The notes below the pieces were generated by a model. The model made no database searches and was not told the origin of the DNA. It saw only the letters and a program-made list of their open reading frames with translations. Shown one piece after another: positions 45,118-62,307 of a DNA stretch of 64,000 nt (its first letter is position 1; each line of letters starts with the position of its first letter). This DNA is from Escherichia coli (GTDB taxonomy: Bacteria; Pseudomonadota; Gammaproteobacteria; Enterobacterales; Enterobacteriaceae), in NCBI GenBank assembly GCA_902500205.1, contig GCA_902500205.1_4868.1, one strand, 5' to 3'. A program made the translations under genes and the position numbers.

Positions 45118-45915
45118 ATGTCTTTTACTTCAAAACAGAATCTGCTAAAACTCATCAACGAAGAGAATAAGATAAGCCCACCGCTTACCTTTGACGATGT
45201 TGATATCGGACTGCCGGAGGTTGTGTCAGTAGACGGTCGTGATTCGGAGGTAGTCCTTACCTCGAAGATGCGCGGTGATGAAGGTACGCAAGTGATTGTG
45301 GACTACCATCGTCGTCCATTAGAGGACTACCTTAAAGGCGATGTTGCCTTTGGAGACGAGGACGTGCAAACCACGCACGACTTACTCGCGGCGATTAACG
45401 AGCGTTTTAATCTGTCTATCTTACCTGAGGATATCGAAGATAACCCCATTGATGGACAGACGCACACAGTCGTTGCTGTTGAAACTTCCCACGAGTGGCG
45501 AAGTCAAGCGGTCATCGAGCTGAAACCTGCTACACCTCTGGCAGAAGTAATAACCAATACAGAGTTGAGCGGTCTTCTGTACCCGGATCACCAGGACATC
45601 CAGTTGGGTCAGGCGTATATCTATTCGCGCGACATCGATTGTAGCCACATCTCTCGTTTCCTGAGCCTCTTAGCGGTCGGTATCGAAGTAGATGACACGG
45701 CGTTAGCAATCGAACTCAACAAATGTGTTCCTGAGATTTGGGTGGCTGAAGATACCCCATCCCCGTATAACTTGCGTGGTGCTACTGTCGTATTCGACGG
45801 CGTACCTGCAGACTTACCGGGAGCAAATACGGCGTTCGCGAAAGTCGTGTCAGTGCAACTGACCGATAAATGTACGAACTTCCAGGGCACCCTCAACTTA
45901 CACTTTAACAACTAG
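45118..45915 (+). CDS. Fibre-like paralog 1 (virion appendage family; function inferred)
   Basis: Shares the family N-terminal signature (about 80 aa, '...RNT...YYDR.NL...') and C-terminal '...L.LHFNN'. Confidence 0.8.
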   Translation: MSFTSKQNLLKLINEENKISPPLTFDDVDIGLPEVVSVDGRDSEVVLTSKMRGDEGTQVIVDYHRRPLEDYLKGDVAFGDEDVQTTHDLLAAINERFNLSILPEDIEDNPIDGQTHTVVAVETSHEWRSQAVIELKPATPLAEVITNTELSGLLYPDHQDIQLGQAYIYSRDIDCSHISRFLSLLAVGIEVDDTALAIELNKCVPEIWVAEDTPSPYNLRGATVVFDGVPADLPGANTAFAKVVSVQLTDKCTNFQGTLNLHFNN

Positions 45916-45925
45916 GAGGGTATAG

Positions 45926-46768
45926 GTGTCTATTTACGATAAGCCCTCGAAAGAGATGTTGTTAGATGCTATTAACCGACAGAACGGATTAACGGCCAAT
46001 CCACTCACATGGGAGCAGGTTGCAACTGGCTTCCCTGAGTCTGTCCAAACGCCTGGCGCTGACCGGAATACGCGTGTGCTCTTATACGGGTTGAACGGCA
46101 AGGGCTACAAAGGCAACGTTACGCTCGAATACGACCGTATCGAAATGGAAATTCTGTTCAGGAACGTAATACCGGTAGTCGTTGCCGACCCGGTAAATAA
46201 ACTCTCTGAGTTGTTGCCGTTTCTGAATGCGAAATACGGCTTGTCTTTAGTTGCCGACGATATCGTTGACCAGTCAGTAAAAGATTTGGGAGAAAGCTGG
46301 TTAATCGATGTGACTATTAAGCCCGGTTGCTTGGCCTGGCAAGGTGGTTTCCGTTTACGCTTTGCGAAGTTCTTCCCGAACTTGGCGGATGTGGTGACGG
46401 ATGTTGACCTCAGCGCAATTATCGCGCCGTTCGTGGTTGCTAGTAAACCACAGGCCGAGTATGTGGCGTATGGTTACGATTGGACTGAACTGCAAAAACA
46501 GTTCACCACCGATTGGGTTTACAACCGTGCAATCACTGCAGCGGATGTTGAGTTGTTGAATGAAGTGGTGCCATTAAAGTTTGCATATGTGACGGGGGCG
46601 AATGCGCAACCTGAACAAATTGCACTCCAAGGTGCACGATTTATGGGGATAACTTCAGTCACACCGAACGATAGTTACAACCCCGATTATCAGCGTGTGG
46701 CGATTATCAAGCTAGCTGCGGACAGCAACTACGCCGGTAATCTCATCCTTCATTATCTCCCGATATAA
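45926..46768 (+). CDS. Fibre-like paralog 2
   Basis: 'aggagg' SD before GTG; 'DRNTRVLLYGLNGKGYKGNVTLEYDRIEM'. Confidence 0.8.
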   Translation: MSIYDKPSKEMLLDAINRQNGLTANPLTWEQVATGFPESVQTPGADRNTRVLLYGLNGKGYKGNVTLEYDRIEMEILFRNVIPVVVADPVNKLSELLPFLNAKYGLSLVADDIVDQSVKDLGESWLIDVTIKPGCLAWQGGFRLRFAKFFPNLADVVTDVDLSAIIAPFVVASKPQAEYVAYGYDWTELQKQFTTDWVYNRAITAADVELLNEVVPLKFAYVTGANAQPEQIALQGARFMGITSVTPNDSYNPDYQRVAIIKLAADSNYAGNLILHYLPI

Positions 46769-46778
46769 GGATTTTGAC

Positions 46779-47624
46779 ATGCCACTTTTAGCCACAGCTG
46801 TAAAGATTATTATCGCGGAGGTTAACGTCGAAAACAATCTCGATTTAAAAGTCGAGGATGTTGTTTTTGGTGTCCCTGCGATTCCAACGTCTGACGAAGA
46901 CTTGGCAAAAGCTAACGGTCACAACGCGATGGTGCGCATTCAGGCATTGGCCACGGCTAATGCTATCGGTGCCACTACCGTCTATTACGATCGTGTTGAC
47001 TTCGCAGACATGTTTACCGATCCGGACGGGATTCAACCTTTACGTGTTCCTGCGCGTCTCGATGCTGTTTACCAGATGCATGACGTGGTCGGGTTAATTA
47101 ACCAGTATTACGGTCTCAGCCTTAAACCTGCAGATGTGGTGAATACCGAAATCGACAGGAAGACATGGCGTGTGGATCTGATTGCCACGCCCACTTCCTT
47201 AGGTTGGATAGGGCAACAACAGGTACAGCTGTTACCAGGCGATGCGTTGCTTCCTGCAAACTTCGAACCGTTAACAGTGATGCCTTACGAGTATCCGTAT
47301 TTCAACATCAAGGTCGGTCAAGGTGCAGTTTATTCGTATCCCTGGCGCTTTGATAATTTCGCGGAGGAATTTCAACGACTAGGTGCTGCGATAACCACAG
47401 AACGTCTGGCACAGATTCTCAAAACGGTCACCGGTGATAACTGGACAACATACCGTAACCCTATCGACTTTAACCTTCGTGAAGCCGTCGTCGTCTATAA
47501 CGGGCGTAACAAAGCGGAATTACCAACCAACCCAGCAGTCGACAACGTGCTGATTGTGGAGCTGTCGTTGTACTGTCTGAATTTTGGCGGGCGTTTGTAT
47601 TTGCATTACAACGACCCTGATTAA
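46779..47624 (+). CDS. Fibre-like paralog 3
   Basis: 'TTVYYDRVDFADMF' and C-terminal 'LYLHYNDPD'. Confidence 0.8.
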   Translation: MPLLATAVKIIIAEVNVENNLDLKVEDVVFGVPAIPTSDEDLAKANGHNAMVRIQALATANAIGATTVYYDRVDFADMFTDPDGIQPLRVPARLDAVYQMHDVVGLINQYYGLSLKPADVVNTEIDRKTWRVDLIATPTSLGWIGQQQVQLLPGDALLPANFEPLTVMPYEYPYFNIKVGQGAVYSYPWRFDNFAEEFQRLGAAITTERLAQILKTVTGDNWTTYRNPIDFNLREAVVVYNGRNKAELPTNPAVDNVLIVELSLYCLNFGGRLYLHYNDPD

Positions 47625-47645
47625 TCCTGAGTAAAGGAAGTAAGA

Positions 47646-48557
47646 ATGAAACCTTTAAACAAAACGTCCGATAAGCTGGTTCTGGATTTTATTAATGAGA
47701 AAAACCCAGACGCAGAACTGGAACTTTCTAAAATAACGCTCGGCACACCGACCCCTATTAGCGATGAAGGTGCTGATCGCAATACCAGCATGACCCTGAC
47801 TGCGAAAAAGAACTCCGGGTACATCGGTACTCAGGACGTGACTTATAATCGCCTGGAAGGCGGTGCGCTGTTCCGTAATGTAACAGCATACCTCGACGTT
47901 AAACTGCCGAAAACCACCACAGACCTGCTGACGACCCTGAACACCCAATACGGATTGAAGCTGACCGAAGACGATATCGTTCCGGCGGCTATTCCGGAAA
48001 ATACCAACCCGCCGCTGACTAACCCGAACGATCCGGACCCAGCACCGGTTGACCATGTCATTACCTTCAAAGAAGACTGCTACGCTTATCTGGGCAGCAT
48101 CCCGGTTAAAATCGGTGCTAAGCCTCAGGTTGGTGAACGTCTGAGTCTGGTGGTAACACAAACCAAGCTCGACGGCCTGGTTTACCCAGATGGTCCAAGC
48201 GAAGCGAAGGGTCAGGGCTACATCTACTCTTACGGTGTAGACTGCACAGCAATCGCAGCATTCCTGAAAGTACAGGCGAAAGGTGTTATCGCTGGCGACT
48301 CTGCATTCCCGGTTGAGCTGAATAAAGTTGTGCCGGAACTGTGGGTTGCATCTGATGAGCCTGCGGATTATAACCTGAAAGGCGCTAACGTGTTGTATGT
48401 TGGTTCTACTGCTGACGATGGCACTGCTTCAGGCGACGAACCTAAGAAACCGGTTGAAGGTGCAAACACTGCTTACAACCAGGTTCTGCTGCTGCAGCTG
48501 GATGACACTCTGTGCACCAACTTCCAGGGCATCATGTACCTGCACTTTAATGCCTAA
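47646..48557 (+). CDS. Fibre-like paralog 4 (codon-optimised, probably the most abundant member)
   Basis: Family motifs plus host-optimised codons (runs of CTG, CCG, GGT). Confidence 0.85.
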   Translation: MKPLNKTSDKLVLDFINEKNPDAELELSKITLGTPTPISDEGADRNTSMTLTAKKNSGYIGTQDVTYNRLEGGALFRNVTAYLDVKLPKTTTDLLTTLNTQYGLKLTEDDIVPAAIPENTNPPLTNPNDPDPAPVDHVITFKEDCYAYLGSIPVKIGAKPQVGERLSLVVTQTKLDGLVYPDGPSEAKGQGYIYSYGVDCTAIAAFLKVQAKGVIAGDSAFPVELNKVVPELWVASDEPADYNLKGANVLYVGSTADDGTASGDEPKKPVEGANTAYNQVLLLQLDDTLCTNFQGIMYLHFNA

Positions 48558-48570
48558 TTAGGCCTCGCTG

Positions 48571-48610
48571 GGAGGAGGAAATCCTCCTCCTGGCTACTCC
48601 TTTCTTTTTT
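48571..48610 (+). terminator. Hairpin with distal T-tract (weak internal terminator)
   Basis: 'ggaggagg-aaat-cctcctcc' then 'tggctactcctttcttttttgg'. Confidence 0.45.
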
Positions 48611-48626
48611 GGCCGAGGAGGCTATT

Positions 48627-49466
48627 ATGGCTTTATATAGTCTGTCTCAGCGACAATATCTGTACGATGCGATTAATGCCGAAAACCCGGATGCTGTTCT
48701 ACCGATGGGTTTAGACAATGCTATCATCGGTACGCCGAAAGCAATCACACCGACAGCAAGCGGTGCCAACACCGAGATTATCATTCGTGGTCGTCAAGGT
48801 CGTGGCTATATCGGTCCTCAGACGTTCCGTTATAAGCGCTTGTCGCTGAACGACTTATTTAAGAACATGACACCTCAGGTAACTGCACCGAATGCCTACG
48901 GTTGGTTGAACGTGGAGTCGAAACGTACTGCGTTTGCGCAGAACCTGAACGGTCGTTATGGATTAAACCTGGTTGCAGACGATATCCCAGAACAATACGT
49001 TTATCTGAACGTAAACAACACGATGCGTATTAACGCTAGCTGTATCCAATACACTGGCAGCATCACCTTTATGTCTATCCGGGGTAAGAATAGCCTCGAA
49101 GACCTCGTGGTAAACGACATCTTGTTGGCTTTGAACCACCCTGCAGCAGCAAGCACTGGTAAGAAATACATGGGCTTCTTGACGTACGGGGAAGACTTTA
49201 CCGATGAAGTGCAGGTTATGGCCTCGTTTAAGAACGGGCGAATGGATGTAGGAAGTAACTTTGATTTGGGTTACACGTCCAATCTGATGGCCACATTGGT
49301 CGCACGTGGGGTACCGTCGTTTGATCCGACGAACTGCACAATTACCCGCTACAAAACGAGTGAGTTGGCGACCGCCAATAAAGCGTACGATAACGTATTG
49401 CTGATTACCGGCATTCAGAACGACCCGAAAGTAATCGGCGAGTGTATGTTGCACTACAACAACTAG
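48627..49466 (+). CDS. Fibre-like paralog 5
   Basis: 'gaggagg' SD before ATG 48627; C-terminal 'CMLHYNN'. Confidence 0.8.
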   Translation: MALYSLSQRQYLYDAINAENPDAVLPMGLDNAIIGTPKAITPTASGANTEIIIRGRQGRGYIGPQTFRYKRLSLNDLFKNMTPQVTAPNAYGWLNVESKRTAFAQNLNGRYGLNLVADDIPEQYVYLNVNNTMRINASCIQYTGSITFMSIRGKNSLEDLVVNDILLALNHPAAASTGKKYMGFLTYGEDFTDEVQVMASFKNGRMDVGSNFDLGYTSNLMATLVARGVPSFDPTNCTITRYKTSELATANKAYDNVLLITGIQNDPKVIGECMLHYNN

Positions 49467-49476
49467 GAATTAGCGA

Positions 49477-50364
49477 ATGGCTATTTATCAACCTTCTAAA
49501 GACGTCCTGTTGGCAGCAGTGAACGCACAGAACTCGCTTGCTGTTAAGATGACTGACATCATCTGGTCCACGCCAAAGGACATCCGTGGTACGGAGAAGG
49601 AAACGCTGACTAACCGTAACACGCAAATTAAAATTACGGCAGATGGGGTAACGGGCTCTACCTGGTCGGGTAAGAAAAATGTCTTCTACAACCGCATGAA
49701 AGTCGAAGACTTGTTAGTGCTGATCGGTGACACGTTGGCGATCGGCCCATCCAACGAAACCTTGTATGCGGCCATTCCTGGACTGAACCAACGTTACGGT
49801 TTTGTTCTGGAAGAAGCTGACCTGCAGGACGCAGATATCGAGTGGAACGGTGATAAGACCGAAGGAACTGTGCGCGTTGTTGCACATCCAGAGTCTATCG
49901 GTTGGGTTGGACAGGCGACATTTAAAGTCGTGAAAGGTGATGAGTCGTTAGTCTCTGCAGTCACCACTAACGTCCTGACCGGTCTGAAATACCCGAACGG
50001 TCAGATGGGTTCCGAAACCGTTACTGCGGTCATTGCAGAGGTTTATTCCTACCCGTACAACTTCACTAAGTACCGAGATGCTCTGCTGGCATACAAGCCG
50101 GGTATTCTGTCTGGACAGCCGTTAACGGATATGGTTAACCTGCTGAAAGATATTACGGGTACTGCATGGGTAGCGACCACTTCCGCTTCCTACGGTTTGG
50201 CGGGCGCGGAGGTTATCAGCGTTGGTCTGAATGACCCTGTTGCAATGCCGACAAACGCGAAGTACAAGTATGCGCTGGTGTTGAAACTGCCTGTTACCTG
50301 TACCACCATCGTCGGAACGTTGTATCTCCAGTTCAACGATCTGGACGATCCAAGCGAGGTATAA
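49477..50364 (+). CDS. Fibre-like paralog 6
   Basis: Family N-terminal motif; C-terminal 'LYLQFNDLDDPSEV'. Confidence 0.8.
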   Translation: MAIYQPSKDVLLAAVNAQNSLAVKMTDIIWSTPKDIRGTEKETLTNRNTQIKITADGVTGSTWSGKKNVFYNRMKVEDLLVLIGDTLAIGPSNETLYAAIPGLNQRYGFVLEEADLQDADIEWNGDKTEGTVRVVAHPESIGWVGQATFKVVKGDESLVSAVTTNVLTGLKYPNGQMGSETVTAVIAEVYSYPYNFTKYRDALLAYKPGILSGQPLTDMVNLLKDITGTAWVATTSASYGLAGAEVISVGLNDPVAMPTNAKYKYALVLKLPVTCTTIVGTLYLQFNDLDDPSEV

Positions 50365-50367
50365 TTG

Positions 50368-51195
50368 ATGATCAACTATGCTAAGCCGTCAAACGAGTTG
50401 GTCTTTGACCTCATTAACCGGGATAACCCAAACCTACCTATTAAAGCGTCGCCGGCAAACTGCTACGTGGAGAAAGTGACACAGGTTCCCGTTAATGCAG
50501 CTTCCAACAACCGCAATACGTCGGCACGCTTGCGCGGTATTCAGGGTTCCGGATTTCGAGACGCAATCACCGTTTATTACGACCGTGTGAACTTAGCGCG
50601 GTTATTGCCGTGGGGTCCTTCTGTCCAGGCGCAGTTCGTCACGTTTGACGCTCCCAACCTCCACTCAGCCTTTTCGGTGCTCTTGGATACTTACGGAGTA
50701 AACTTCTCTGCAATCGATATCTATAACCTCCCACTGGCGGGCCCCAATACCCCAAATTACACCAATACACAGAACATCGTAGCGCTATCGACATCTCCGG
50801 CTTATATCGGTTCTGCGACGTTGCGTTATAACCGTGGTTTACCGGTACTAGACACTTCGGTGAAATCGGATGTCTTGAATGCGATTCAAGAGCCTATCTC
50901 GCCGTCTCTCGGTAAGAAGTGTATTGATTTGTTGACGTACGGTATTGACTTTACCGCGTATAAAAACCTACTGACAGTAGATGCTTCTGGCCTACCGCAG
51001 TGGGCTGGTTTGCGTAAGGTGTTGGATGACCTGGGTATTCCGAACTACGCGGGGCCACTGAACAGTAACACCGTTCAGGATGTGCCGACTTCCACCGCTC
51101 AGTTCGCTAACAAATCGTACGACCGCGTGGTTATCCAAACGGGCATCGATGAGGAAGGCGTGAAAGGCGTGGCGTACTACCACTATAACAGCTAA
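50368..51195 (+). CDS. Fibre-like paralog 7
   Basis: 'NRNTSARLRGIQGSGFRDAITVYYDRVNLARLL'; C-terminal 'AYYHYNS'. Confidence 0.8.
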   Translation: MINYAKPSNELVFDLINRDNPNLPIKASPANCYVEKVTQVPVNAASNNRNTSARLRGIQGSGFRDAITVYYDRVNLARLLPWGPSVQAQFVTFDAPNLHSAFSVLLDTYGVNFSAIDIYNLPLAGPNTPNYTNTQNIVALSTSPAYIGSATLRYNRGLPVLDTSVKSDVLNAIQEPISPSLGKKCIDLLTYGIDFTAYKNLLTVDASGLPQWAGLRKVLDDLGIPNYAGPLNSNTVQDVPTSTAQFANKSYDRVVIQTGIDEEGVKGVAYYHYNS

Positions 51196-51200
51196 GTGTA

Positions 51201-51227
51201 GGGGCTCTTCGGAGCCCCCTCTTTTGG
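51201..51227 (+). terminator. Hairpin with short T-tract (weak internal terminator)
   Basis: 'ggggctc-ttcg-gagcccc' followed by 'ctcttttgg'. Confidence 0.5.
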
Positions 51228-51242
51228 CGATGCGGAGTCCCT

Positions 51243-52655
51243 ATGCTATTTTACTCGAAGGAGTCGGCACTGCTTGTATACGACCAAGTCAATCGGGATA
51301 ACCCTGATTTAGTTGTTAAGCTGACGCCGGCTATCGCTGCTTTAACCGGCGGCCCAACTTCAGTTACGTTAAACCAACGTAACACCAAAGCTGTTTTCAC
51401 CGGGTATCCAGGGACAGGTGTACAAGGTAATGTTACCGTGTACTACGACCGGATTAACCTGGCCACTTTATTTAATTTTGTGCCGACTGTGGCTATCAAA
51501 GATACAGTCTTAACGGTACGAGACGCGCTACCTGCAATAAACGACGCATTGGGGCTTACATTAGTTGCTTCTGATTTGCAGTCACCTGACGCAAGTTTAC
51601 CTAAACCGAGCGCTTCGCCGCAGACGTTGAAATTAAATATCTCAGGTAATTGCCCTGCGTTTACAGGCAGCTTAACGATACGTTATACCGTCCCGAGCGG
51701 TGCAATTTACCCCGATTCTGGACCTGGCCCTAAAACGTTGCTGCAAGGTAACACTATCGCGGGTTATTTCGGAACAACCACAATTGCAGAGTTGTTTACA
51801 CACTCTCAACTTCTTAATGCCACTATATCGGCCGGTGCGTTACCACCGGTACATTCTGGTGCCGAAGGTTGGTACAAGTTCTTTTACCAGGGTAGGGTTA
51901 TTTACCTCCCGATCAGTCCTGTCGCTAGCTCCATCTCCTGGAATACGTTATATACAAACGGACTCGTTTACGGAACAGATGATAATGGTAAATACCCTGC
52001 GGCGACGCCCGTTAACCAGGGACGCATCATTAGCTTTACAGGCGCAGACAACAAAAGGTTTTACTTCCGCGTTCGTCTACCTAGTGCTGGGAAGGACCCA
52101 TACGTCAGCGGCACCCCAACTGCCGCTGAGTTAGCAGGTAGTGAGTTTGAGATGTTCAACTTTCTGTATAATGGAACGTGGGACAAACCGATTAACAGTT
52201 ACTGGACGCTGTTCTGTTTATTGAAAGATACACTGAAGACCAACGTCGCCTATCATCGCATGGCGACGTTGTCTGGAGCCAGTTGGACAAACTTAGGAAA
52301 ATCATCGAGCGCAGGCAACTACTACTGGTTCCCGGTGCTGGAGTTGGTGGATAAATCCACAGTTACCTTGGGTTTAGAAGATATCCATGGTGCGGTAGAT
52401 TACAGTCTCCAACCGTGCAGCGTGTCCGCAGAAAACACGTTTAGTCTCAAGCCGTTGGTGCTCGGTAATCCAGATACTACCGATTTCGAACCGGTAGTTG
52501 TTACTTCAGAAAACAGTTTCGCACTGCATCCGCCTGCTTTAATGCTGCCGAAGACAGTCGATTTCCAACCTATTGCGGCTACCGCTGAAATGTATACGCC
52601 CCCTGACAAGACAACGTTAACGTCTCTTAACGGTGAACTGGACGGCTTTAAGTAG
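51243..52655 (+). CDS. Cassette gene A1: long fibre-like protein
   Basis: Family N-domain, 'YPDSGPGPKTLLQGNTIAGYFG', C-terminal repeats ending 'LNGELDGFK'. Confidence 0.85.
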   Translation: MLFYSKESALLVYDQVNRDNPDLVVKLTPAIAALTGGPTSVTLNQRNTKAVFTGYPGTGVQGNVTVYYDRINLATLFNFVPTVAIKDTVLTVRDALPAINDALGLTLVASDLQSPDASLPKPSASPQTLKLNISGNCPAFTGSLTIRYTVPSGAIYPDSGPGPKTLLQGNTIAGYFGTTTIAELFTHSQLLNATISAGALPPVHSGAEGWYKFFYQGRVIYLPISPVASSISWNTLYTNGLVYGTDDNGKYPAATPVNQGRIISFTGADNKRFYFRVRLPSAGKDPYVSGTPTAAELAGSEFEMFNFLYNGTWDKPINSYWTLFCLLKDTLKTNVAYHRMATLSGASWTNLGKSSSAGNYYWFPVLELVDKSTVTLGLEDIHGAVDYSLQPCSVSAENTFSLKPLVLGNPDTTDFEPVVVTSENSFALHPPALMLPKTVDFQPIAATAEMYTPPDKTTLTSLNGELDGFK

Positions 52656-52666
52656 AGGTATCATCT

Positions 52667-53665
52667 ATGTCTTTTACTTTGCGTTGGAAAAATCCAAACG
52701 TAATCCCTACGGTAGTAAAAATCTACCGTGACGTTAAAGATATCACACCAAGCGCTTTGCCTGAACCGATTGCAACGCTCTCAAATGGCGAGACAGAATG
52801 GCGTGATGCCACCGCCAAACCAGGCGCAATCTATTATTACCTTCTAACGGTAACCGCCAACGGTAAAACAGTGGCATCGTCTAGCCAGAAATACACCATT
52901 GAGATAAAGCGTGGGATTGGCCCAATGACTATTCTAAACGGTAACGACCGTTTAGGGTTTATGGGTGCGGTTCCTTACGACGAACAATGGCTTCCGTCGC
53001 AAATGCCACCTGCATTTTTGGCGATGTTCCCTAATCTATTAACCGATCGTGTGGCGTTGTATAAATTTACCCGAAACGGGAAAATCTATTACATGCTATC
53101 TAATACGTCGCAGTTCCCGAATACGCCTGTGGACTGGGCTTCCCTCTATCAAGCCGGTTTAGTCTATGGTACAGGCGATGCTGGCCCAGAGAACGGCCAT
53201 GGAACGCTACCAGACACTCCACAAGACGCTAAGATAGTCCACAAAGGGGATACGTACATTATGCGGCTTCCTCGCGGCCTGACGATGTCTAGCGAGCCTC
53301 CTGCGTATCCTTTCGTAGCTGACTATAATGGGAAAACCCATGATGAAATCGCTTCTCTAACCAACCCGTGTGAGTATAACGATTTACTTTACACGATGGT
53401 TAACGAGGTGCCGTGGAAACAGCGTTGGGCTAACTGGGCAACGAACAGTTATACTTTTCTGGGGCAGGGTACTTTGGGAACCTTGGCAGCGTATTTCGGC
53501 GGTGGTGTTCTCTGTATGGAACACGACACCGCGGAAGACCGTGTGCTCCATCGTGGTATCTTTAACAATGCCGGTGGAACACCCGTATCAGCGATTCAGC
53601 GTATAAACTATTTATCACCCACCACGAAAGGGCGTTACTACCCTATCTTTGAACTGGTCGAGTAA
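52667..53665 (+). CDS. Cassette gene B1: fibronectin-III-like N-terminus plus shared C-domain
   Basis: Paralog of 56121-57107 ('...FTLRWKNPN...IYRD...NGETEW...YYY...'). Confidence 0.85.
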   Translation: MSFTLRWKNPNVIPTVVKIYRDVKDITPSALPEPIATLSNGETEWRDATAKPGAIYYYLLTVTANGKTVASSSQKYTIEIKRGIGPMTILNGNDRLGFMGAVPYDEQWLPSQMPPAFLAMFPNLLTDRVALYKFTRNGKIYYMLSNTSQFPNTPVDWASLYQAGLVYGTGDAGPENGHGTLPDTPQDAKIVHKGDTYIMRLPRGLTMSSEPPAYPFVADYNGKTHDEIASLTNPCEYNDLLYTMVNEVPWKQRWANWATNSYTFLGQGTLGTLAAYFGGGVLCMEHDTAEDRVLHRGIFNNAGGTPVSAIQRINYLSPTTKGRYYPIFELVE

Positions 53666-53674
53666 GGGGCAGTC

Positions 53675-54598
53675 ATGACTATACGGTTAAGCTGGCCGTC
53701 CCAAGCCAGCAAAGGTCTTACCGCGATTGAAATCTACCGCAAGGAAGGTTGGAACGCAACAATCGACGTTTACAATCCAGGCACACCCCACGCAACTTTA
53801 TCAGGCAACGCGGTAGAGTTCGTAGATAATATCGATACCCTGACGAAGAATACAACCTATCGTTATTGGGTAGCTGCTGTGAAGGACAGTGAACGACTTA
53901 TCGGCAATCCGATTACGCAAGGATTCTATCCGGACACCGGGCCGGGTCCGCAAACAATCCTGCGCGGTGACTGGGCTTCAGGTTATTTCGGTACAGTACC
54001 GAATACAGAGTTCTTTAATACTGCCGAGTTAAAACTCATGTTAACTGCGCAGCAGGGAAACATGTTTGTCTACGACCCTCAGGAATGGCACAAGTTTATT
54101 TTCCGTGGGAGAATTGTCTTCTTCCCAGCGACGATGCATTCGAAAACCAACTCGGTACAAATGGCGTATCAGTACGGTATGATGTACGGGACCGATGATG
54201 TCGGAAGTATTGTTCCGCAGGGAGCCACGGCGACTAAACAAGATTGTAAGGTCACGAAGGATGGTCGTACGTACCGTATCCGATTACCTTACGCAGTCCC
54301 GTACGACGCTGTTCTCTCAGGACAGGATTACAACAACGGTGAATGGCGAAACACAATGGGCCGTTTGTATCCTGTCGGTGCAGAGTTCGCAGCCCTCGGT
54401 CTTGGTGCGATTGACTCACTTGCAAGACAAGGCGCGACTGCGCAGCCGAATGAGTCAGGTGCCGCTGTATTAGCTCCTTTGTGGAGCAACAACATATTCG
54501 CTTATGCGTATGGCACCGTGCCTATGGGGATTAGTAACACCGCAGGTGTCGGGAACTCGGCCACGATATTCTTTGCTTTCGAATTAGTCTTACCGTAA
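53675..54598 (+). CDS. Cassette gene C1: FN3-like N-terminus plus GPGP domain
   Basis: Paralog of 57110-58009 ('YPDTGPGPQTILRGDWASGYFGTV'). Confidence 0.85.
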   Translation: MTIRLSWPSQASKGLTAIEIYRKEGWNATIDVYNPGTPHATLSGNAVEFVDNIDTLTKNTTYRYWVAAVKDSERLIGNPITQGFYPDTGPGPQTILRGDWASGYFGTVPNTEFFNTAELKLMLTAQQGNMFVYDPQEWHKFIFRGRIVFFPATMHSKTNSVQMAYQYGMMYGTDDVGSIVPQGATATKQDCKVTKDGRTYRIRLPYAVPYDAVLSGQDYNNGEWRNTMGRLYPVGAEFAALGLGAIDSLARQGATAQPNESGAAVLAPLWSNNIFAYAYGTVPMGISNTAGVGNSATIFFAFELVLP

Positions 54599-54611
54599 CG
54601 GAGTAAAAGCC

Positions 54612-56108
54612 ATGGGGTTGTATACAGAACCTTCAATGGAACTGCTCTGCCAACAAATTGTGCGTGACAATCCCGGTTTAGCAGGAAAAATCACCGCTGA
54701 CTCCGTTGGGGTCAGGGGTGTTCCTGTTGCGAGAAACGTTAACGGACGAAACACACAGATTACGTTGGTAGGAAAACCTGGTAAAGGATTTGCTGGGGAA
54801 ATAACGGTATATTACGACCGGTTGAATCTGGCCAGTCTGTTCAAGTCTGGCCCGAATATGGTGAGTATTCCACGTAGCGCACAAACCCATGCGGAAGCGT
54901 TACCGGCGTTCAATGAATTGAACGGGTTGAACTTAACCGCGAGTGACATCACCAGTCCAAACGTTGCATTAATGAAATACGCTACGCCGGAAACTATAAC
55001 TCTGACGGCGCACGCTAACTCCTTGTGCTATACCGGGTCATGCAAGATGACCTATGTTTACGAACCGATTGCGATGTATCCGAAGTCGGGCCCTGGGCCA
55101 AAAGGATTAATGGCCGGTAATGAGTTATACGGATTCTTTGGGCTGGTAAGCGCGGAAGAGTTATTCACATCTGATGAAATGGTGTATGCCCTCTATAACG
55201 GCACCAACTGGCCTAACCGCTACGCTATCAAGTGGCTCAAATTCTTTCTGAATGGGGCGGTAGTGTTTGTTCCGACCCGTGCGATTTGCAACGTTACCTG
55301 GGCAGACCTGTACAACAAGGGTGCAATATTTGATTCCGGAGACGCAGGACCTCGCCCGAAGTCGACTTACACACCTGTCGATGTTGAACAGTTGAAATAC
55401 ATGGTAAAACGGGATGATGAAGGAACGCATTATTTCAGAATGTCTATCCCGTATTACACCGAGAACGCCGCCGCGCCTGATTGGAGTAAACCGCCGTCAA
55501 TCACCTCTATCCTGTCACTGACCAGCAAATTGGGGTCGGTGAACGTATATGGGGAATGGGGAACTCTTAGCACGACTGATGCTAACTTCCTGGATTCCGT
55601 GTGGTTACGACACCAGTTCGGTGCCGACCAAGCGTATTACCAGTCTATCAGTGGGAGCTATCGTTCATACACCTACATCTACACCTCTTCTGGCTTTTGG
55701 CCAATCCTGGAGATGTTTGATGTTGCCAATGAACCTGTGCCGTTGATTGACGAAGGTGCAGAACTAACATGGGCACCGTCCGTGGTTACTCTGACGGACA
55801 TCGACCAAAATGAATCGCTTCGTGTGGTGCCTATTACGGAAACCTCCGCTGCAGCGAATCCACGTCCGTTAGTTTTCAACACCGACAACACCGAAACTGC
55901 CACCCCTGCCTGGGTGCGGGAAGCGTCATCAGACTCACCACGTCCTCTGCTTGCCACGACGGACAATGATGAACGTGCATATTCCGTCGCGGTAACAGGC
56001 ATGGCTAGCGTTAAGATTAGACCGATTATTCTCACGACTGACCAAATCGCCCAACCTTCAAAAATTACTCTGGGCGATACTAACGGTGAGTTGGATGGAT
56101 TCCAATAA
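54612..56108 (+). CDS. Cassette gene A2: long fibre-like protein
   Basis: Paralog of A1; 'YPKSGPGPKGLMAGNELYGFFG'; ends 'TNGELDGFQ'. Confidence 0.85.
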   Translation: MGLYTEPSMELLCQQIVRDNPGLAGKITADSVGVRGVPVARNVNGRNTQITLVGKPGKGFAGEITVYYDRLNLASLFKSGPNMVSIPRSAQTHAEALPAFNELNGLNLTASDITSPNVALMKYATPETITLTAHANSLCYTGSCKMTYVYEPIAMYPKSGPGPKGLMAGNELYGFFGLVSAEELFTSDEMVYALYNGTNWPNRYAIKWLKFFLNGAVVFVPTRAICNVTWADLYNKGAIFDSGDAGPRPKSTYTPVDVEQLKYMVKRDDEGTHYFRMSIPYYTENAAAPDWSKPPSITSILSLTSKLGSVNVYGEWGTLSTTDANFLDSVWLRHQFGADQAYYQSISGSYRSYTYIYTSSGFWPILEMFDVANEPVPLIDEGAELTWAPSVVTLTDIDQNESLRVVPITETSAAANPRPLVFNTDNTETATPAWVREASSDSPRPLLATTDNDERAYSVAVTGMASVKIRPIILTTDQIAQPSKITLGDTNGELDGFQ

Positions 56109-56120
56109 GAGGTAACGACA

Positions 56121-57107
56121 ATGGCTTTTACAATTCGTTGGACGAACAATAACCCTGGGGCTTCGACCGTGAAGCTGTACCGCGACACCAAACCTCTGGT
56201 GCGTACGGCATTACCTGAACCTCTGGCAACGTTCACTAACGGGGAAACTGAGTATACTGACCGAACAGCGATACTGGGGACAACGTATTACTACATGACC
56301 ACTGTGACAGTGGGAAGCCGAACACTGTTCAGTCCGCAGAAATCAATTCTGATTCAGAACCGTCGCGGTATCGGCATCGTGACTCCACAGTACGGTGATG
56401 ACCGCTTTGCGTATTACGGGTATGTGGCGTACGGTGAATTGCCTAGCGCGGCTGATTATCCGCCAGGGTTTGTGGCCATTTCTGGATATGACCCAACTGT
56501 TAAGCCGGGCTTGATTAAGTTCCAGCTAGACGGTAAAATTCTGTATCTGTTTAGTGGTCTTCGTGTGAACGGCAACACGCTGTATAGCCGTGATGCGATT
56601 TATAACGCGGGTTTGCTGTACGGTGTGGAGGGACCTGGTCCGGAAGGCGGTCATGGTGATTTACCTGACGTTGACCAGGCTGGGGAGTTTACGTGGTTGG
56701 GTGACCGCTATCGGATGCGCCTGCTGCGCGGGTTAACGCTCGACAGTGAAAGCCCGGTCATGACACTCGACGCACAGTGGAACGGTAAACTCCATGACGC
56801 GTCACCGTATACTGCCGATAGCGAATACAACCGACTCATCTATGGGATAAGTAGCTGGTTCCCAGAAAAGAAAAAAGTGATGTCCCTGATAAAGTGGTCG
56901 AACACCAGCATATTCGGAAGTGGATCGCTGGTGGCAGGCCGTGGGGCGCATTGTCAGGAGTTTGACCCAGACAGTAAGTTGGGGCTGACGCGCGGATGGG
57001 CGGCGGCGGATTCCACTGATACCGTGGATAACCTCCAGCGTATACAACATGTCCCTGCGACCGTGGGCGGTATTTGGATTCCAGTAATCGAGCTTATCGA
57101 GGATTAA
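56121..57107 (+). CDS. Cassette gene B2
   Basis: Paralog of B1. Confidence 0.85.
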   Translation: MAFTIRWTNNNPGASTVKLYRDTKPLVRTALPEPLATFTNGETEYTDRTAILGTTYYYMTTVTVGSRTLFSPQKSILIQNRRGIGIVTPQYGDDRFAYYGYVAYGELPSAADYPPGFVAISGYDPTVKPGLIKFQLDGKILYLFSGLRVNGNTLYSRDAIYNAGLLYGVEGPGPEGGHGDLPDVDQAGEFTWLGDRYRMRLLRGLTLDSESPVMTLDAQWNGKLHDASPYTADSEYNRLIYGISSWFPEKKKVMSLIKWSNTSIFGSGSLVAGRGAHCQEFDPDSKLGLTRGWAAADSTDTVDNLQRIQHVPATVGGIWIPVIELIED

Positions 57108-57109
57108 TC

Positions 57110-58009
57110 ATGCCTATTACATTAAACTTTGCACAACGGAAGCCACAGGCGCTCGATAACATTGAAATCTATCGCAAGACGCCGGGCAACGCCACCATTG
57201 ATGTTAATGCACCGGGAACGCCTCTGGCAACCCTTCCGGGTGACGCTACATCGTACGAAGACAACGCTGTGGAAAACAACACCACTTACCGTTATTGGAT
57301 AGCTGCGGTTAAAGACGGTGAGCGTGTCTTCAACACCCCTACCGCCCAAGGGTTCTTTTTAGACACCGGGCCTGGCCCCCAGAAACTGTTATACGGCGAC
57401 TGGCACGCCGGATACTTTGGAACAGTAACGCCAGCAGAGTTATTCACTAACGCGGAACTGAACAGCCTCGTGGTGAATATGTTCAGTTCCGCCGTTGGTG
57501 CCTGGCATAAGTTCATTTACAAAAACCGTATTCTGTTTATGTCCGATAACTCGATAATATACGCTAGCCCGCAGTTCATTTATAACCAGGGGCTGATGTA
57601 CGGCCAGGATGGCAACGGATATGTGCCGAGCTGGGCTAGTGCACGTAACCAACGCCGCACGGTGACGAAAAACGGTTACGAATACGTGGTGCGCTTGCCG
57701 TATTTGTTCGACTACAAATACTGGACGTCTTTCGTTGGAAGCGGTAACACCGAGTTGTATCTCGACGGTGAGTGGTTTAACACCTTCGCGCGCCTGTACA
57801 ACTACAGTGGGCAGTTTCCGCGCTTTGACGACATTCCGGTCGGTCCAATCGATTCGGTTACTGCCCAACAATCTGCATTCTTTGCGGCTATGAATAACTT
57901 GTCCGCTCAGTGGTACAACCGTCCACCCTACCCAGAGTCGCCGTCATGGGGTAACTACGGTACCGATACAATACGCTCTATTGCGGTACTTGAACTCGTT
58001 CTGCCTTAA
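57110..58009 (+). CDS. Cassette gene C2
   Basis: Paralog of C1; ATG 57110 after 'gagga' (track start 57074). Confidence 0.8.
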   Translation: MPITLNFAQRKPQALDNIEIYRKTPGNATIDVNAPGTPLATLPGDATSYEDNAVENNTTYRYWIAAVKDGERVFNTPTAQGFFLDTGPGPQKLLYGDWHAGYFGTVTPAELFTNAELNSLVVNMFSSAVGAWHKFIYKNRILFMSDNSIIYASPQFIYNQGLMYGQDGNGYVPSWASARNQRRTVTKNGYEYVVRLPYLFDYKYWTSFVGSGNTELYLDGEWFNTFARLYNYSGQFPRFDDIPVGPIDSVTAQQSAFFAAMNNLSAQWYNRPPYPESPSWGNYGTDTIRSIAVLELVLP

Positions 58010-58020
58010 CAGGAGACTTC

Positions 58021-58056
58021 ATGGGATTGTATAGCGCACTTTACCATAACAGCTAA
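58021..58056 (+). pseudogene. Vestigial 5' stub of an A-type cassette gene (11 codons)
   Basis: 'aggagacttcATGGGATTGTATAGC...' mirrors the A2 start 'ATGGGGTTGTATAC...' (both MGLY...); runs into TAA after 11 codons, directly before a terminator. Confidence 0.5.
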
Positions 58057-58088
58057 AAATAGGCCCTTCGGGGCCTATTTTCTTTTTT
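58057..58088 (+). terminator. Intrinsic terminator (TTCG loop)
   Basis: 'aaataggccc-ttcg-gggcctattt' followed by 'tcttttttag'. Confidence 0.85.
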
Positions 58089-58099
58089 AGGACGTTGCA

Positions 58100-59419
58100 A
58101 TGATCAACTATAACAAACCTGTCATGCAACTGGTTTGGGATCAGATTAATCGTGATAACCCGCAGCTCAAGAAACCGCTCAACGCAACCAACGTGGCGTT
58201 ATTACAAGGTCCTTTAACCAATGCCTTGCGCGATGGTCGCAACAGCCGTATCGTGGTAAACGGATTACAGGGTGGTGGTTACAGCGGTAAGATGGACATC
58301 TACTACGACCGCTTAAACCTTTCGCAGTATTTTAAAGGCGTCAGCGTACCGGTTAAAGTACCTTATCGGGCGACGGTCTACCGCGACATCATCGATCGGA
58401 TTTCCGCAGCTTGTGGGTTGGTGCTTACTGCTGACGATTTAACGTATCCTGACAGCCAGTTTGCAATGATCACTGTGGCAACGGGCGATCGGACGGTGGC
58501 GATTAAATCGGATAACCCCGCATTCACGGGTTATATTCCTATTAGCTTTATTCGTGAAGAGCCCAGCTTTGCCGACTTGTACCACACCACCGAAACCGGA
58601 GCTTGGGAACCCATGGATGTTTACAGCACGGTCTATCGACTCGACTGGAGCATGTACACTCAACAGATAATCAATATCCCAATGGGTACCCCGCTGCGAC
58701 TAAACAGTAACTCGTACATGACCCAGTTCATCGCGGCGCTGTCGGCATGGTCGGGCATCCCGTTCACTATCGGTAATGCTGCTACTGATAACCCGTATGA
58801 CCTCTATGGGTATGTCGCTACACGCAATAACAACCCAGGCTTAGACCCTGATATGCGTGGGGAGTACAAATACTGCGTGAAGTTGACGCCACCTGAGGAT
58901 ATGGGTAATCTCCGCCGTCCGTTCTTCTTGCACTTTGGTCCGAAAAATAACGTGGCCTATTTGGCGCAGGAAGAGGACGTCGAGCGTTATGCGCGTTACA
59001 TGAGTTTCCGGGAAACCAGCCCAAATTCGATGAGCGTCACGTTGTATCAAAACGAGTACGTGTTGACTCGGGCAGAATCGCCTGAAACAGCGGATGATTT
59101 AACGGGTTCCCCGTATGGCACTCGATACTGTACCGGGAGTATTCGACGGCTGATGCAACACGCGTTTCCGACCGAAGAGATGTTCCAAGAAAGTATTGCT
59201 AACCGACGTCGGGTACTGTACCACACTGCTTACACCACCACGACATCAGCTATTACTTACCAGGGATTATACCGTAACGGATACCAATCCAAACAAATGA
59301 CGAGCCTCTACTCGAATTACTGTAACTATTTCATCTATTACGACCCAAGCAAAGGCGGCTATATGGTCTACAGTCCATATAGCAAAACCGCCCCGGTCCC
59401 TTGGTATCCACCGCTATAG
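58100..59419 (+). CDS. Fibre-like protein (439 aa) with family N-domain and distinct C-terminus
   Basis: 'GRNSRIVVNGLQGGGYSGKMDIYYDRLNLSQYF'; C-terminal 'YSPYSKTAPVPWYPPL'. Confidence 0.85.
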   Translation: MINYNKPVMQLVWDQINRDNPQLKKPLNATNVALLQGPLTNALRDGRNSRIVVNGLQGGGYSGKMDIYYDRLNLSQYFKGVSVPVKVPYRATVYRDIIDRISAACGLVLTADDLTYPDSQFAMITVATGDRTVAIKSDNPAFTGYIPISFIREEPSFADLYHTTETGAWEPMDVYSTVYRLDWSMYTQQIINIPMGTPLRLNSNSYMTQFIAALSAWSGIPFTIGNAATDNPYDLYGYVATRNNNPGLDPDMRGEYKYCVKLTPPEDMGNLRRPFFLHFGPKNNVAYLAQEEDVERYARYMSFRETSPNSMSVTLYQNEYVLTRAESPETADDLTGSPYGTRYCTGSIRRLMQHAFPTEEMFQESIANRRRVLYHTAYTTTTSAITYQGLYRNGYQSKQMTSLYSNYCNYFIYYDPSKGGYMVYSPYSKTAPVPWYPPL

Positions 59420-59433
59420 ACTAAGGTGCCACC

Positions 59434-61611
59434 ATGTCCTACACTCCTGATTTAGTGGCGACCGTGATTCGGTCGCTCAACCGTAAAAACGCGGTCGCCA
59501 GAGCAGTAGACCCCGCTAACGTACGCCTGGTGTCCGTGGCGCATCGTGACGAAAAAACCCTAGACGTCACACTGACAGGGGGTCCGGGGTATTCTAGTTA
59601 CGGTCAAATTACGGCCCAGGTCACGAAGCAAAATATTGCTGATTATTTCGCTAAGGTTAAGTTGGATGCCATTCCCACTTGTGCGTCCATCCACGAACTG
59701 TTGCCACATTTAGACACTCTACTAGGGATTACCTTTTTAACCGACGACTTTGAAGACCTGCCCATCACTTGGACAAACAATGCTGCGCGCATCACGTTCC
59801 AGGCGAAACAGACAAGTCTTATCTGGTACGGCAGCCAAACGCTAGATGTGATAAACGGTGACGTGGATATCAACACTGTCTACACTGTTACCAATATCAT
59901 TTTCACGCTAAAGGCTGCGAATAAACAGCAGTGGATTAACTTCTACTCTAATGCAGCCAAACGGATCGTGGATCTTGATAAAGTCGATGTCAGCGCCCCG
60001 ATGTCCCCGGAGGATATAGGCCAAACCTCTGCGTATAACAGCGTCGTAGCTTTGACCGCTAGACCGGGGAGCGGGATGTTTGGAACGAAGTATGTGTTCT
60101 TCTCACGTAACAAACTCGAGACATATGCAGGCAAAACCACATACGTCCCGGACGATTTCACCGGTAGCCTGCATGATGCTCTGGCCATCGAGACACTCGG
60201 CATTCGGAGTGTTTTTGATGTAAACGAAATTGCTCCTGTAGAGAACCTGACAGGCGAGTGGCCGAGACAAGTGCAATTGGCACCCGTAGAGGGTTCGTAC
60301 AAAGTCATGGGCAGCGCCACGTTGAATGTGGCACGCTATCAAGATAACGAGCAAACCCTTAACCTGAACTACACAACTACGTCGCAACTTTCGGACAGCT
60401 ACTGGGCCACAACGTTGATCAACCATGCGGCCTGCGGGCGTTTGTTTGTTAACGTGACCGTAGATGCGGGGGCTTTCGTTTATCGCGACAGCAACCTGAA
60501 ACCGACGTTCGTTATCGACGAATTGCCGCAAATTGGCGAGGTGGTTTGGAACTTCGTTAACCGGGGAACCATTCTTGGTCGTGGTGGTTCGGGTGTGGTC
60601 TACTCTATGCCTGCGAACACATCAGCGGACGGAGCTGACGCAATCCACATTAGCGATACCTTCCGTGGCAAAGTCACCATCGAAAACTACGGCACCATCG
60701 CCGGTGGTGGGGGTGGGGGCGACTACTATGCGTTTAGCACCACCAAGATCGGTGGAGCTGGTGGTGCGCCTCTCGGGCCAGGCGCGGCGGTGCCCAGCGA
60801 CACCAATAACCGTAACGGCTTAGCTGGGTCCCGTGACAAAGGCGGTGCTACCCAGTTAGTCGTCGCGCAATTTACCGGCTACCAGAGTCGCTACTATGGC
60901 GGTCCGGGTGGGGATTGGGGCCAGCCGGGACGTTATACAGCGTTCGAGCAATGGAACACCCCGGCTACCGGCTCGCCGGTCTATGTCTACGGTCGTGAAG
61001 ACGGGATGTCATGGACTCGCCCTGGGATGGCAGGCGAAGCCGTCGGTGGGAATAAAAGTATCGTCAACTGGGTATCCGTCGGAACGGTGAAACCGAATGT
61101 CACCGACGAGTACCAAGAGTTCCTCGACTACCTCGCAGATTTAGATGCCAACCGACTGGCTAGTGCGGATGGGATAGATAAAGTCACCGACCCAACCAAA
61201 CCTGTAGTTGTGGAGTTCTTAGGTACGATTATTTCAGGTACGCTGTTCAAAAAGCAAAACATACCCGGCGGTTTGGTGGGAACACCATACGGCGATGCTG
61301 TAGCCAACTTACCAGCCACCACATTGTTTGGTATCATGGCACACTGTGTATCGGAGTTTGATATTGTGCACGACACTTGGCGTTACAACCGCGCGGTAAT
61401 GTTCACGCTAAAACCCGCACCTACCGGGGCGATTAGCCTCGCTGTGGAACGCAACCGGGTGAAATCGGCTACCAGTAGTGCACCGGTGGAGAAGTTCTAC
61501 GTCGATCGCTTCGTGTATTACGATGCGTATCTCGGTAAAATGATGGAATGTAATCCGTATACCAAATCTGCCCCTAAACCGTGGGTGCGGCCAACGATAC
61601 CGTTATCGTAA
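59434..61611 (+). CDS. Large fibre-like protein (725 aa) with Gly-rich segment
   Basis: Family-like N-terminus; 'GGGGGGDYYAFSTTKIGGAGGAPLGPGAAVPS'; C-terminal 'NPYTKSAPKPWVRPTIPLS' echoes the previous gene. Confidence 0.85.
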   Translation: MSYTPDLVATVIRSLNRKNAVARAVDPANVRLVSVAHRDEKTLDVTLTGGPGYSSYGQITAQVTKQNIADYFAKVKLDAIPTCASIHELLPHLDTLLGITFLTDDFEDLPITWTNNAARITFQAKQTSLIWYGSQTLDVINGDVDINTVYTVTNIIFTLKAANKQQWINFYSNAAKRIVDLDKVDVSAPMSPEDIGQTSAYNSVVALTARPGSGMFGTKYVFFSRNKLETYAGKTTYVPDDFTGSLHDALAIETLGIRSVFDVNEIAPVENLTGEWPRQVQLAPVEGSYKVMGSATLNVARYQDNEQTLNLNYTTTSQLSDSYWATTLINHAACGRLFVNVTVDAGAFVYRDSNLKPTFVIDELPQIGEVVWNFVNRGTILGRGGSGVVYSMPANTSADGADAIHISDTFRGKVTIENYGTIAGGGGGGDYYAFSTTKIGGAGGAPLGPGAAVPSDTNNRNGLAGSRDKGGATQLVVAQFTGYQSRYYGGPGGDWGQPGRYTAFEQWNTPATGSPVYVYGREDGMSWTRPGMAGEAVGGNKSIVNWVSVGTVKPNVTDEYQEFLDYLADLDANRLASADGIDKVTDPTKPVVVEFLGTIISGTLFKKQNIPGGLVGTPYGDAVANLPATTLFGIMAHCVSEFDIVHDTWRYNRAVMFTLKPAPTGAISLAVERNRVKSATSSAPVEKFYVDRFVYYDAYLGKMMECNPYTKSAPKPWVRPTIPLS

Positions 61612-61644: not shown

Positions 61645-61657
61645 AGATAAACCATGC

Positions 61658-61689
61658 CCTCTTCCCCACGGGGAAGAGGCTTTCTTTTT
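61658..61689 (+). terminator. Intrinsic terminator
   Basis: 'cctcttccc-cacg-gggaagagg' followed by 'ctttcttttt'. Confidence 0.8.
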
Positions 61690-61716
61690 ATGACCCTATC
61701 AACTCAGGAGGTTATC

Positions 61717-62307
61717 GTGGTCGATCGTTGGAGTAAAGAGGGCATTATTCGTGCCAAAGTAAACATCGAAGCCGGTTACGTTAATAACCCGAAAGATTTG
61801 GGTAAAGCAACGAACCGTGGTGTCACCGAACTCACGGCGCGTGAATATGGCTATAAAGGGGATATGCGTGACCTGAGCTTAGAAATCGCGTTAGACATTT
61901 ACAACAAGCTCTGGTGGCAGCGAATGCGTTTAGACCAGATTATGAAAATGAATGTCCTGCTAGCTGACCGGATGTTTGACTTCGGCATTAACGCAGGACG
62001 CGGTAACTGTATCAAGTCCCTGCAACGTATTCTGAACGTATTAAACCGTCAGGGTAAACTATACGATGATATCGATGCCGATGGTGGTATCGGGCCACGT
62101 ACGTTAACAGCGTTAGAAGGCTTCATCAAAGCCCGTGGGGAAGAGGGCCTGAATCGACTGATGTTCGCTTTAACCTGTCATCAGGTTGCGTATTACACGG
62201 AAATCAGTGAAGGGCGTGAGGATAACGAAGAGTTTACTTACGGCTGGTATGGCCGCGTCTATCAGGAAATGCCAGACTACGTGGCTAAGTTGGGGATGTG
62301 CAAATGA
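61717..62307 (+). CDS. Endolysin candidate: GH108-type muramidase with peptidoglycan-binding-like C-terminal region
   Basis: 'GYVNNPKDLGKATNRGVT...IYNKLWWQ...FDFGINAG...DADGGIGPRTLTAL' fits the GH108/PG-binding arrangement; 'aggagg' SD before GTG 61717 (ATG 61690 alternative). Confidence 0.6.
   Translation: MVDRWSKEGIIRAKVNIEAGYVNNPKDLGKATNRGVTELTAREYGYKGDMRDLSLEIALDIYNKLWWQRMRLDQIMKMNVLLADRMFDFGINAGRGNCIKSLQRILNVLNRQGKLYDDIDADGGIGPRTLTALEGFIKARGEEGLNRLMFALTCHQVAYYTEISEGREDNEEFTYGWYGRVYQEMPDYVAKLGMCK

Follow-up and report, generated by a model that had tools for sequence, protein, structure and literature searches.

Paired three-gene cassettes of virion proteins in a Seoulvirus sequence: a remnant of a larger cassette array

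Six consecutive genes at positions 51243 to 58009 of a 64,000-nucleotide stretch of DNA deposited as Escherichia coli (contig GCA_902500205.1_4868.1 of assembly GCA_902500205.1; hereafter the window) form two copies of a three-gene cassette, A-B-C, related to virion proteins of SPN3US (genus Seoulvirus), a nucleus-forming "chimallivirus" of Salmonella. Rather than a simple duplication into two copies, the triplets are the remnant of an ancestral array that held four or more cassettes. We give about even credence to the idea that each cassette encodes one modular, surface-displayed, ligand-binding virion unit whose specificity differs by cassette type. SPN3US matches the region at 98.4% nucleotide identity over the full 6.8 kb, and there are 38 related phage records for it. 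All six open reading frames lie at the coordinates originally predicted, on the + strand, and comparison of protein masses and coordinates with published tables assigned them to SPN3US proteins: A1 (gp145, 470 aa, 51243..52655), B1 (gp146, 332 aa, 52667..53665), C1 (gp147, 307 aa, 53675..54598), A2 (gp148, 498 aa, 54612..56108), B2 (gp149, 328 aa, 56121..57107), and C2 (gp150, 299 aa, 57110..58009). Further evidence for individual genes came from blastp with phrog_1062 and alignments (B1), with Pfam and repeat analysis (A2), with PHROG and alignments (B2), and with PHROG and dN/dS (C2). The start of C2 is the ATG at 57110, which follows GAGGA and is annotated in SPN3US; the longest-frame alternative is a TTG at 57074. 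All six genes belong to SPN3US "paralog family B," which passages of the published accounts list as gp83, gp138-154, gp160, gp161, and gp237 (Thomas 2016, Ali 2017, and a 2023 paper in Viruses, PMC10052503).

The predicted pairwise paralogy of two syntenic triplets was borne out by blastp, which aligned A1 with A2 at 29% identity over 512 columns (E 4e-62), B1 with B2 at 39% (E 5e-56 to 8e-70), and C1 with C2 at 43% (E 1e-64). The three families are also related to each other through a common core (A-C, E 1e-19; B-C, E 1e-11; A-B, E 1e-8). When 51243-54598 was compared with 54612-58009, tblastx returned a single collinear chain spanning all three genes, whereas blastn left only three short collinear patches of 67-74% identity; thus, the A-B-C duplication is real but old. 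Alignment of the cores contained both motifs on which the prediction had relied, namely, the DTGPGPQ...GYFGT...ELF module and the terminal strand (F/I)(P/A)(V/I)(L/F)EL(V/I), of which A2 has an EM variant.

The cassette, rather than the single gene, behaves as the unit of evolution. Neighbour-joining trees of A, B, and C from five genomes were congruent, with the groups {W1, SPN1, SNU4-1, WEL1}, {W2, SPN2}, {SPN3, SNU4-2}, {SNU4-3, EPIV-1}, and {SNU4-4, EPIV-2} (cassettes are numbered within the window, SPN3US, Erwinia phage pEa_SNUABM_4, Wellington, and EarlPhillipIV, in abbreviated form). Since the three trees give the same groupings, the triplets travel and diverge together. Three cassettes and the stub of a fourth are found in SPN3US, four in pEa_SNUABM_4, and two each in Wellington, EarlPhillipIV, the window, EC001, Lh1B, and SPLA3. 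The lineage holds at least five cassette types, with two to four copies per genome. The original prediction of two diverged versions is accurate for the two triplets in the window and understates this variety, as well as the scar that a deleted third cassette left behind.

That scar occupies 58021..58056 on the + strand and was recognized by comparison with SPN3US. The first 19 nt of A3 (58021-58039, ATGGGATTGTATAGCGCAC) are joined to the sequence that precedes the terminator in SPN3US, leaving a 12-codon open reading frame, stop included; relative to SPN3US, 3447 bp are missing (locus L001 15801-19247), with a 9-nt ATAGCG(C/T)AC microhomology at the junction. EC001 has the same short scar. 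SPN3US in turn carries an unannotated 30-codon A4 stub (MGFYSSTALELLCRLIQRDNPQHAGRISWS*; L001 19152-19244) between gp153 (C3) and the terminator, at the site of which a longer remnant, of 276 nt, is annotated in SPLA5c, and SPLA3 lost cassette 3 via a crossover between the A3 5' end and the A4 stub. JN03 has, besides types 1 and 2, a complete fourth-type cassette, 54-60% identical to SNU4-4 and EPIV-2, together with a cassette 3 reduced to a wreck of ~500 nt, and it lacks gp154 and gp155. In SPLA5c, A2 is followed by a B2/B3 hybrid with a broken frame and by C3; the A2 tail is shorter by exactly one 26-aa repeat, and the hybrid (L006 11772-12846) contains a tandem duplication, with GFGPDNGRGDLVGVDQSGLFEWQGDT occurring twice, that shifts the frame. 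The hybrid may be a genuine pseudogene or may stem from the assembly. Separately, the records of SPFM5-12, 14, 15, and 20 (LR5359xx) matched the region only as 3-10 fragments with truncated or odd open reading frames, which suggests frameshift-rich assemblies rather than biology.

The cassette proteins may be redundant structural paralogues without a specific ligand, stabilizing or decorative, that are being lost by drift; whole cassettes are missing from the viable phages represented by the window, EC001, Lh1B, SPLA3, and SPLA5c, a B gene is broken in SPLA5c, and remnants persist in SPN3US and JN03. We consider this unlikely, however, because retained copies are under purifying selection, with dN/dS of mostly 0.05-0.25, cassette types have been kept across phage genera at 45-63% identity, and most of the divergence falls within a single sub-region of the core. 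Values of 0.37-0.65 were found in C2 and B2, with C2 (0.37-0.64) the highest in the block. The retained genes are functional, as indicated by the overall dN/dS range of 0.05-0.65, by tight packing (gaps of 2-13 nt), by a separate ribosome-binding site for each gene, and by the terminator-like hairpins at 51201 and 58056 that bracket the block. Diversification by a diversity-generating retroelement was also considered and was ruled out by the lack of template/variable repeats: between 44000 and 64000 there was no such pair, only coding-motif repeats of 35-46 nt. The neighbouring region of SPN3US has no annotated reverse transcriptase.

The A proteins combine half of a known domain with the core and a repeat-bearing tail. 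A1 consists of a DUF7941 N-domain (residues 1-150), the core (~152-376), and a disordered tail (380-470), and A2 has the same layout. Matches to DUF7941 (PF25613; gathering score, 27 bits) reached 109.5 bits for A1 and 104.4 bits for A2 and covered only profile positions 1-153 of 276; for the linker and C-terminal domain (profile positions ~154-276), Pfam gave no match in either protein. The N-terminal domain has the fold seen in phiKZ gp127. Pfam likewise gave no PF25613 match for B1, B2, C1, or C2, which are not DUF7941 members. Internal repeats in the A tails, as originally predicted, are real and have a 26-residue period. The A1 tail has two (nt 52422-52577; starts paired at residues 394/420 and 413/439; score 35 versus a shuffled maximum of 29) and ends in NGELDGFK, while the A2 tail has three (nt 55857-56090; starts at residues 416/442/468; scores 40 and 28 versus a shuffled maximum of 31) and ends in NGELDGFQ. 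This NGELDGF end is conserved throughout the A family.

B and C share a different plan, in which an N-terminal FN3-like domain precedes the core. In B1 the FN3-like segment covers residues 1-80 and is followed by a divergent core; in C1, FN3 covers residues 1-84 and the core residues 85-307; B2 and C2 are built in the same way. The FN3-like starts that had been predicted were supported by structure, as the N-termini of B and C form a seven-strand beta-sandwich superposable on FN3, while Pfam fn3 (PF00041) matched only below its gathering score, in 8 of 29 homologues (best E 0.006), and Pfam assigned no family to B or C. The core itself, ~225 aa, is common to A, B, and C; B1 matches phrog_1062 (E 4e-55), and this PHROG family spans B, C, and the middle of A. 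The fold of the core is probably C-type-lectin-like. Searches of the PDB with phmmer and hmmsearch returned only noise and marginal FN3 matches, and Pfam searches at E<=10 gave sub-threshold noise and weak fn3 only, with no tie to a known family. The possibility that the core is an expanded DUF7941 C-terminal domain was rejected after hhalign comparison with the seven full-length DUF7941 paralogues encoded upstream (probability 0.14). The label "glycosyl hydrolase" attached to B- and C-type genes (OQ383623, MT679221) was also rejected, since Pfam revealed no catalytic domain; the label probably derives from the FN3 domain, which is common in glycosidases.

Conservation is uneven along the core, the first ~140 residues of which are conserved and the C-terminal ~90 hypervariable. 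In the C family, scores are ~0.8 across FN3 and the first core half, fall to 0.43-0.55 at residues 241-300, and rise to 0.89 in the last strand, a profile that fits a stable scaffold with a variable binding face. Predicted monomer models of A1 and C1 show globular domains and one disordered tail, with no fibre shaft (coiled coil, beta-helix, or triple beta-spiral) in either.

Outside the window, the core family is broad. A profile built from the six window cores matched 1713 clusters (E<=1e-3) among 1.84 billion representatives. The commonest architecture was FN3 plus core (~300 aa); others were the DUF7941 N-domain plus core (~470 aa), the core alone, and giants in which as many as nine cores follow one another. 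Some giants also carry Laminin_G_3 lectin domains, a Kelch propeller, or BspA-type leucine-rich repeats (LRR), and two of these are located on contigs of 250-275 kb. These fusions are adhesion-type contexts, and tandem cores show that several can work side by side. Annotated phages with the core were exclusively chimallivirus-type jumbo phages (of Erwinia, Salmonella, Pseudomonas, Ralstonia, Serratia, and others). In PhiPA3 and RSL2, judged from gene sizes and annotation only, two to three tandem genes of FN3-plus-core size (~330 aa) have no A-sized neighbour. No core module was found in Goslar by tblastn, and a repeat at E<=10 added nothing.

A working model of the cassette can be proposed from these features. 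A would be the anchor, its DUF7941 N-terminal half-domain plugging into a scaffold made by the seven upstream full-length paralogues, and its disordered tail, with 26-residue repeats and a conserved NGELxGF end, would supply docking strands. B and C, having FN3 and no anchoring domain of their own, would ride on A; because they lack such a domain yet reach similar virion levels, they most probably bind A in a putative A-B-C assembly. The core of all three proteins may bind a host-surface ligand, plausibly lipopolysaccharide (LPS) or another glycan, and cassette types, which would differ mainly in the variable core face, may carry differing specificities. Cassettes would be gained, lost, and shuffled as units by recombination at the conserved A 5' ends and between paralogous B genes, with the window representing a putative two-cassette survivor of a four-cassette ancestor. 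The genomic context fits ligand binding: the gp155 homologue downstream carries a Gp38-type adhesin domain, and susceptibility to two seoulviruses, SPLA1a and SPLA5c, depends on factors that include LPS synthesis genes. These two phages differ in O-antigen glucosylation sensitivity and in an insertion affecting a virion-structural-protein region.

Published proteomics of SPN3US detected all nine cassette proteins in purified virions. When published peptide-spectrum matches (PSM) per kDa are scaled to the tail sheath (~264 copies), each cassette protein is present at ~10-35 copies, an estimate accurate only to within a factor of about two, since the tail tube scales to 121 instead of ~264. Heads of 255(am107), an amber mutant in the tail tube, were isolated on CsCl gradients (step, then buoyant density), and the normalised ratio of protein abundance to that in wild type (am107/WT) was 1.06-1.67 for gp145-153, 1.22 for gp154, and 0.89 for gp155, similar to the values for bona fide head proteins, whereas sheath, tube, and baseplate proteins gp167-171 and gp258 fell to 0.004-0.03. 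An earlier tail-less mutant, 64(am27), gave the same head assignment for the array. The locus had been described as a fibre array, and the tail-fibre sense of that term does not hold for proteins that remain with tail-less, CsCl-purified heads (am107/WT 0.89-1.67 for gp145-155). Likewise, in the predicted three-component fibre complex, the three components gained support from the congruent trees and from the presence of all members in the virion at broadly similar low copy number, while the fibre reading did not. On this proteomic evidence, the units would sit on the head or neck side and not at the baseplate.

The same adhesin function could instead be exercised from the tail, with the cassette proteins as terminal or side elements of DUF7941 filaments on the outer baseplate and hence true tail-side host-recognition fibres. 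We view this as possible but doubtful. The A1 N-domain matches phiKZ gp127, whose modelled position is the tip of the outer peripheral baseplate; Goslar gp22 assembles into filaments when purified; head-to-tail oligomers of DUF7941 are predicted by AlphaFold; and the SPN3US family B member gp237 has been reassigned to the tail. Nevertheless, heads purified from two tail-less mutants of SPN3US retain the entire array, and in 255(am107) it is at head-protein levels while baseplate gp167-171 are down 100-fold. The Goslar preprint (bioRxiv 10.64898/2026.04.21.720040), which proposes a baseplate-anchored "DUF7941 fibre cloud" on the basis of the gp22 filaments in vitro and the AlphaFold oligomer models, reports no DUF7941 density at the baseplate and does not cite the SPN3US data. 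Location is thus contested, because SPN3US proteomics point to the head and phiKZ and Goslar structures and models to the baseplate; direct data for the SPN3US clade favour the head or neck side, and the head co-purification challenges both the tail-fibre reading and the fibre cloud model.

Alternatively, the cassette products may be internal head proteins that are packaged and possibly ejected, as suggested by the tentative label "Head ejection?" that early SPN3US papers gave to abundant family B members and by their presence in DNA-filled tail-less heads from buoyant-density CsCl gradients. This seems improbable given the FN3 domains, lectin-like cores, Gp38-type neighbour, and lectin, LRR, and Kelch fusions in relatives, all of which are features of extracellular adhesion. 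Furthermore, the homologous N-domain is external in phiKZ, and rapid cassette turnover is typical of host-interface genes.

Several observations weigh against a surface-displayed, head- or neck-side ligand-binding unit. In phiKZ, cryo-EM places the DUF7941 N-domain protein gp127 at the outer baseplate; the Goslar preprint argues for the baseplate as well, and Goslar capsid maps are without DUF7941 density. Long filaments that become entangled with heads, without attaching specifically, could explain the head co-purification. Viable phages without whole cassettes show that each cassette is dispensable. In addition, the NGELDGF tail could not be identified as a copy of the DUF7941 linker: a hidden Markov model of the seven full-length paralogues, compared with 13 A tails, gave a best E of 0.23. 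One hint of a tail-linker relation remains in phrog_4862, a 177-aa family with a DUF7941-like N-part whose C-terminus matches A1 residues 437-470 (whole-protein E 7e-5).

Taking the head-side ligand-binding unit further, we offer as a speculative extension that the clade of SPN3US and the Erwinia phages bears on its head or neck, rather than its tail, a set of lectin-like adhesin units of three proteins each that can be exchanged for one another, in which A, anchored by its DUF7941 N-domain, carries B and C on its repeat tail, each type recognizes its own glycan, and host range or encounter efficiency is tuned by cassette gain and loss through recombination at A 5' ends. If true, these phages would recognize hosts through a modular system that is borne on the head and separate from the baseplate fibres.

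The neighbouring genes place the cassettes in a longer array, all on the + strand. Upstream, seven tandem full-length DUF7941 genes (45118..51195) correspond to SPN3US gp138-144, as established by full-length PF25613 matches (e.g., E 6e-87 and 2e-84), mutual blastp, and synteny with SPN3US; their products are proposed scaffold or filament subunits. A terminator-like hairpin in the gap between gp144 and A1 (51201..51218) marks the upstream edge of the cassette block, and a strong one with an 11-bp stem and a T-run (58056..58091) closes it. Downstream lie a gp154 homologue (58100..59419), in which Pfam and PHROG identified a DUF7941 N-part followed by an unrelated C-terminal part, and the gp155 homologue (59434..61611), with a DUF7941 N-domain and a T4 Gp38-type adhesin domain (PF05268, E 1.5e-18, residues 362-553) bearing glycine-rich motifs. 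A C-terminal stretch of ~110 aa is common to both (blastp E 2e-7; phrog_6409) and has no relation to the cassette core. Gp38-type domains are known from tail-fibre tips, which makes the head co-purification of gp155 (0.89) odd. Terminator-like hairpins on the + strand, at 44971, 51201, 58056, and 61658, split the array at 45118-61611 into what appear to be three transcription units, one for gp138-144, one for the cassettes, and one for gp154-155. The longest open reading frame of the endolysin gene that follows (61654-62307) begins inside a strong terminator-like hairpin (61658-61679); the gene is annotated at 618 nt in SPN3US, and the true start in the window is probably ~36 nt downstream of 61654. 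Two DUF7941 proteins, gp141 (homologue at 47646-48557 in the upstream group) and SPN3US gp160 (encoded outside the window), are present at ~180-250 copies per virion by scaled PSM, far above the rest of the family. This is close to the number of hexamer-centre densities, 260, that a 30 A map of the SPN3US capsid is reported to show. A Hoc-like role at these centres was weakened as a candidate by the Goslar hexon centre, which is a beta-barrel of the capsid protein's C-terminal arms, and the link is doubtful.

Chimalliviruses such as phiKZ, SPN3US, and Goslar are leading giant-phage models and therapy candidates. Little is understood of how they locate their hosts, and it was only in 2026 that the DUF7941 family was put forward for a role in host recognition. 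The locus described here shows part of that family as three-gene units, with a proposed anchor, two partners bearing FN3, and a putative lectin-like head on each protein, and close phage relatives from different hosts differ by whole cassettes. Natural variants with two, three, and four cassettes, hybrids, and amber-mutant systems offer a tractable handle on what the proteins bind, and the same variants can settle the contradiction in the literature between proteomics, which point to the head, and structural modelling, which points to the baseplate.

In comparison with known systems, SPN3US paralog family B is the closest: the six window genes are orthologues of gp145-150, for which virion presence and head co-purification were measured. 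The cassette genes, their paralogy, and their virion presence are therefore already published. Passages of the family B papers treat 17-21 proteins as one undifferentiated family of unassigned function, and in those passages no A-B-C triplets, three architectures, FN3 or lectin-like domains, cassette types, or copy-number variation are described. We found in the literature searched no description of the organisation into three-gene cassettes, of their three architectures, of FN3 or lectin-like domains in these proteins, of the types, of the range of two to four copies, or of the recombination scars. Among DUF7941 proteins, A1 and A2 resemble Goslar gp86, gp92, and gp161 in having the N-domain followed by a putative recognition domain; they differ in lacking the linker and C-terminal domain, and B and C lack DUF7941 altogether. 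Head-to-tail filament formation has been reported only for Goslar gp22 among these proteins, and the Goslar model contains no partner-protein cassettes, while the SPN3US data point to the head side. T4 Hoc, T4 whiskers, and the capsid fibres of phage 7-7-1 are Ig- or FN3-type, dispensable head-side accessories proposed to aid host encounter; the analogy is in proposed role only, and no density like that of Hoc or capsid fibres is seen in the Goslar capsid maps. Iyer et al. 2021 found no C-type-lectin-fold FGS domains in jumbo phages. Known domains of C-type-lectin fold include Bordetella phage Mtd, T. denticola TvpA, the intimin and invasin tips, the Legionella Lcl C-terminal domain, and the Bdellovibrio Bd2740 tip, with none of which the core shares sequence similarity; in contrast to Mtd, which is diversified by mutagenic retrohoming, the cassettes owe their diversity to whole-cassette paralogy and recombination.

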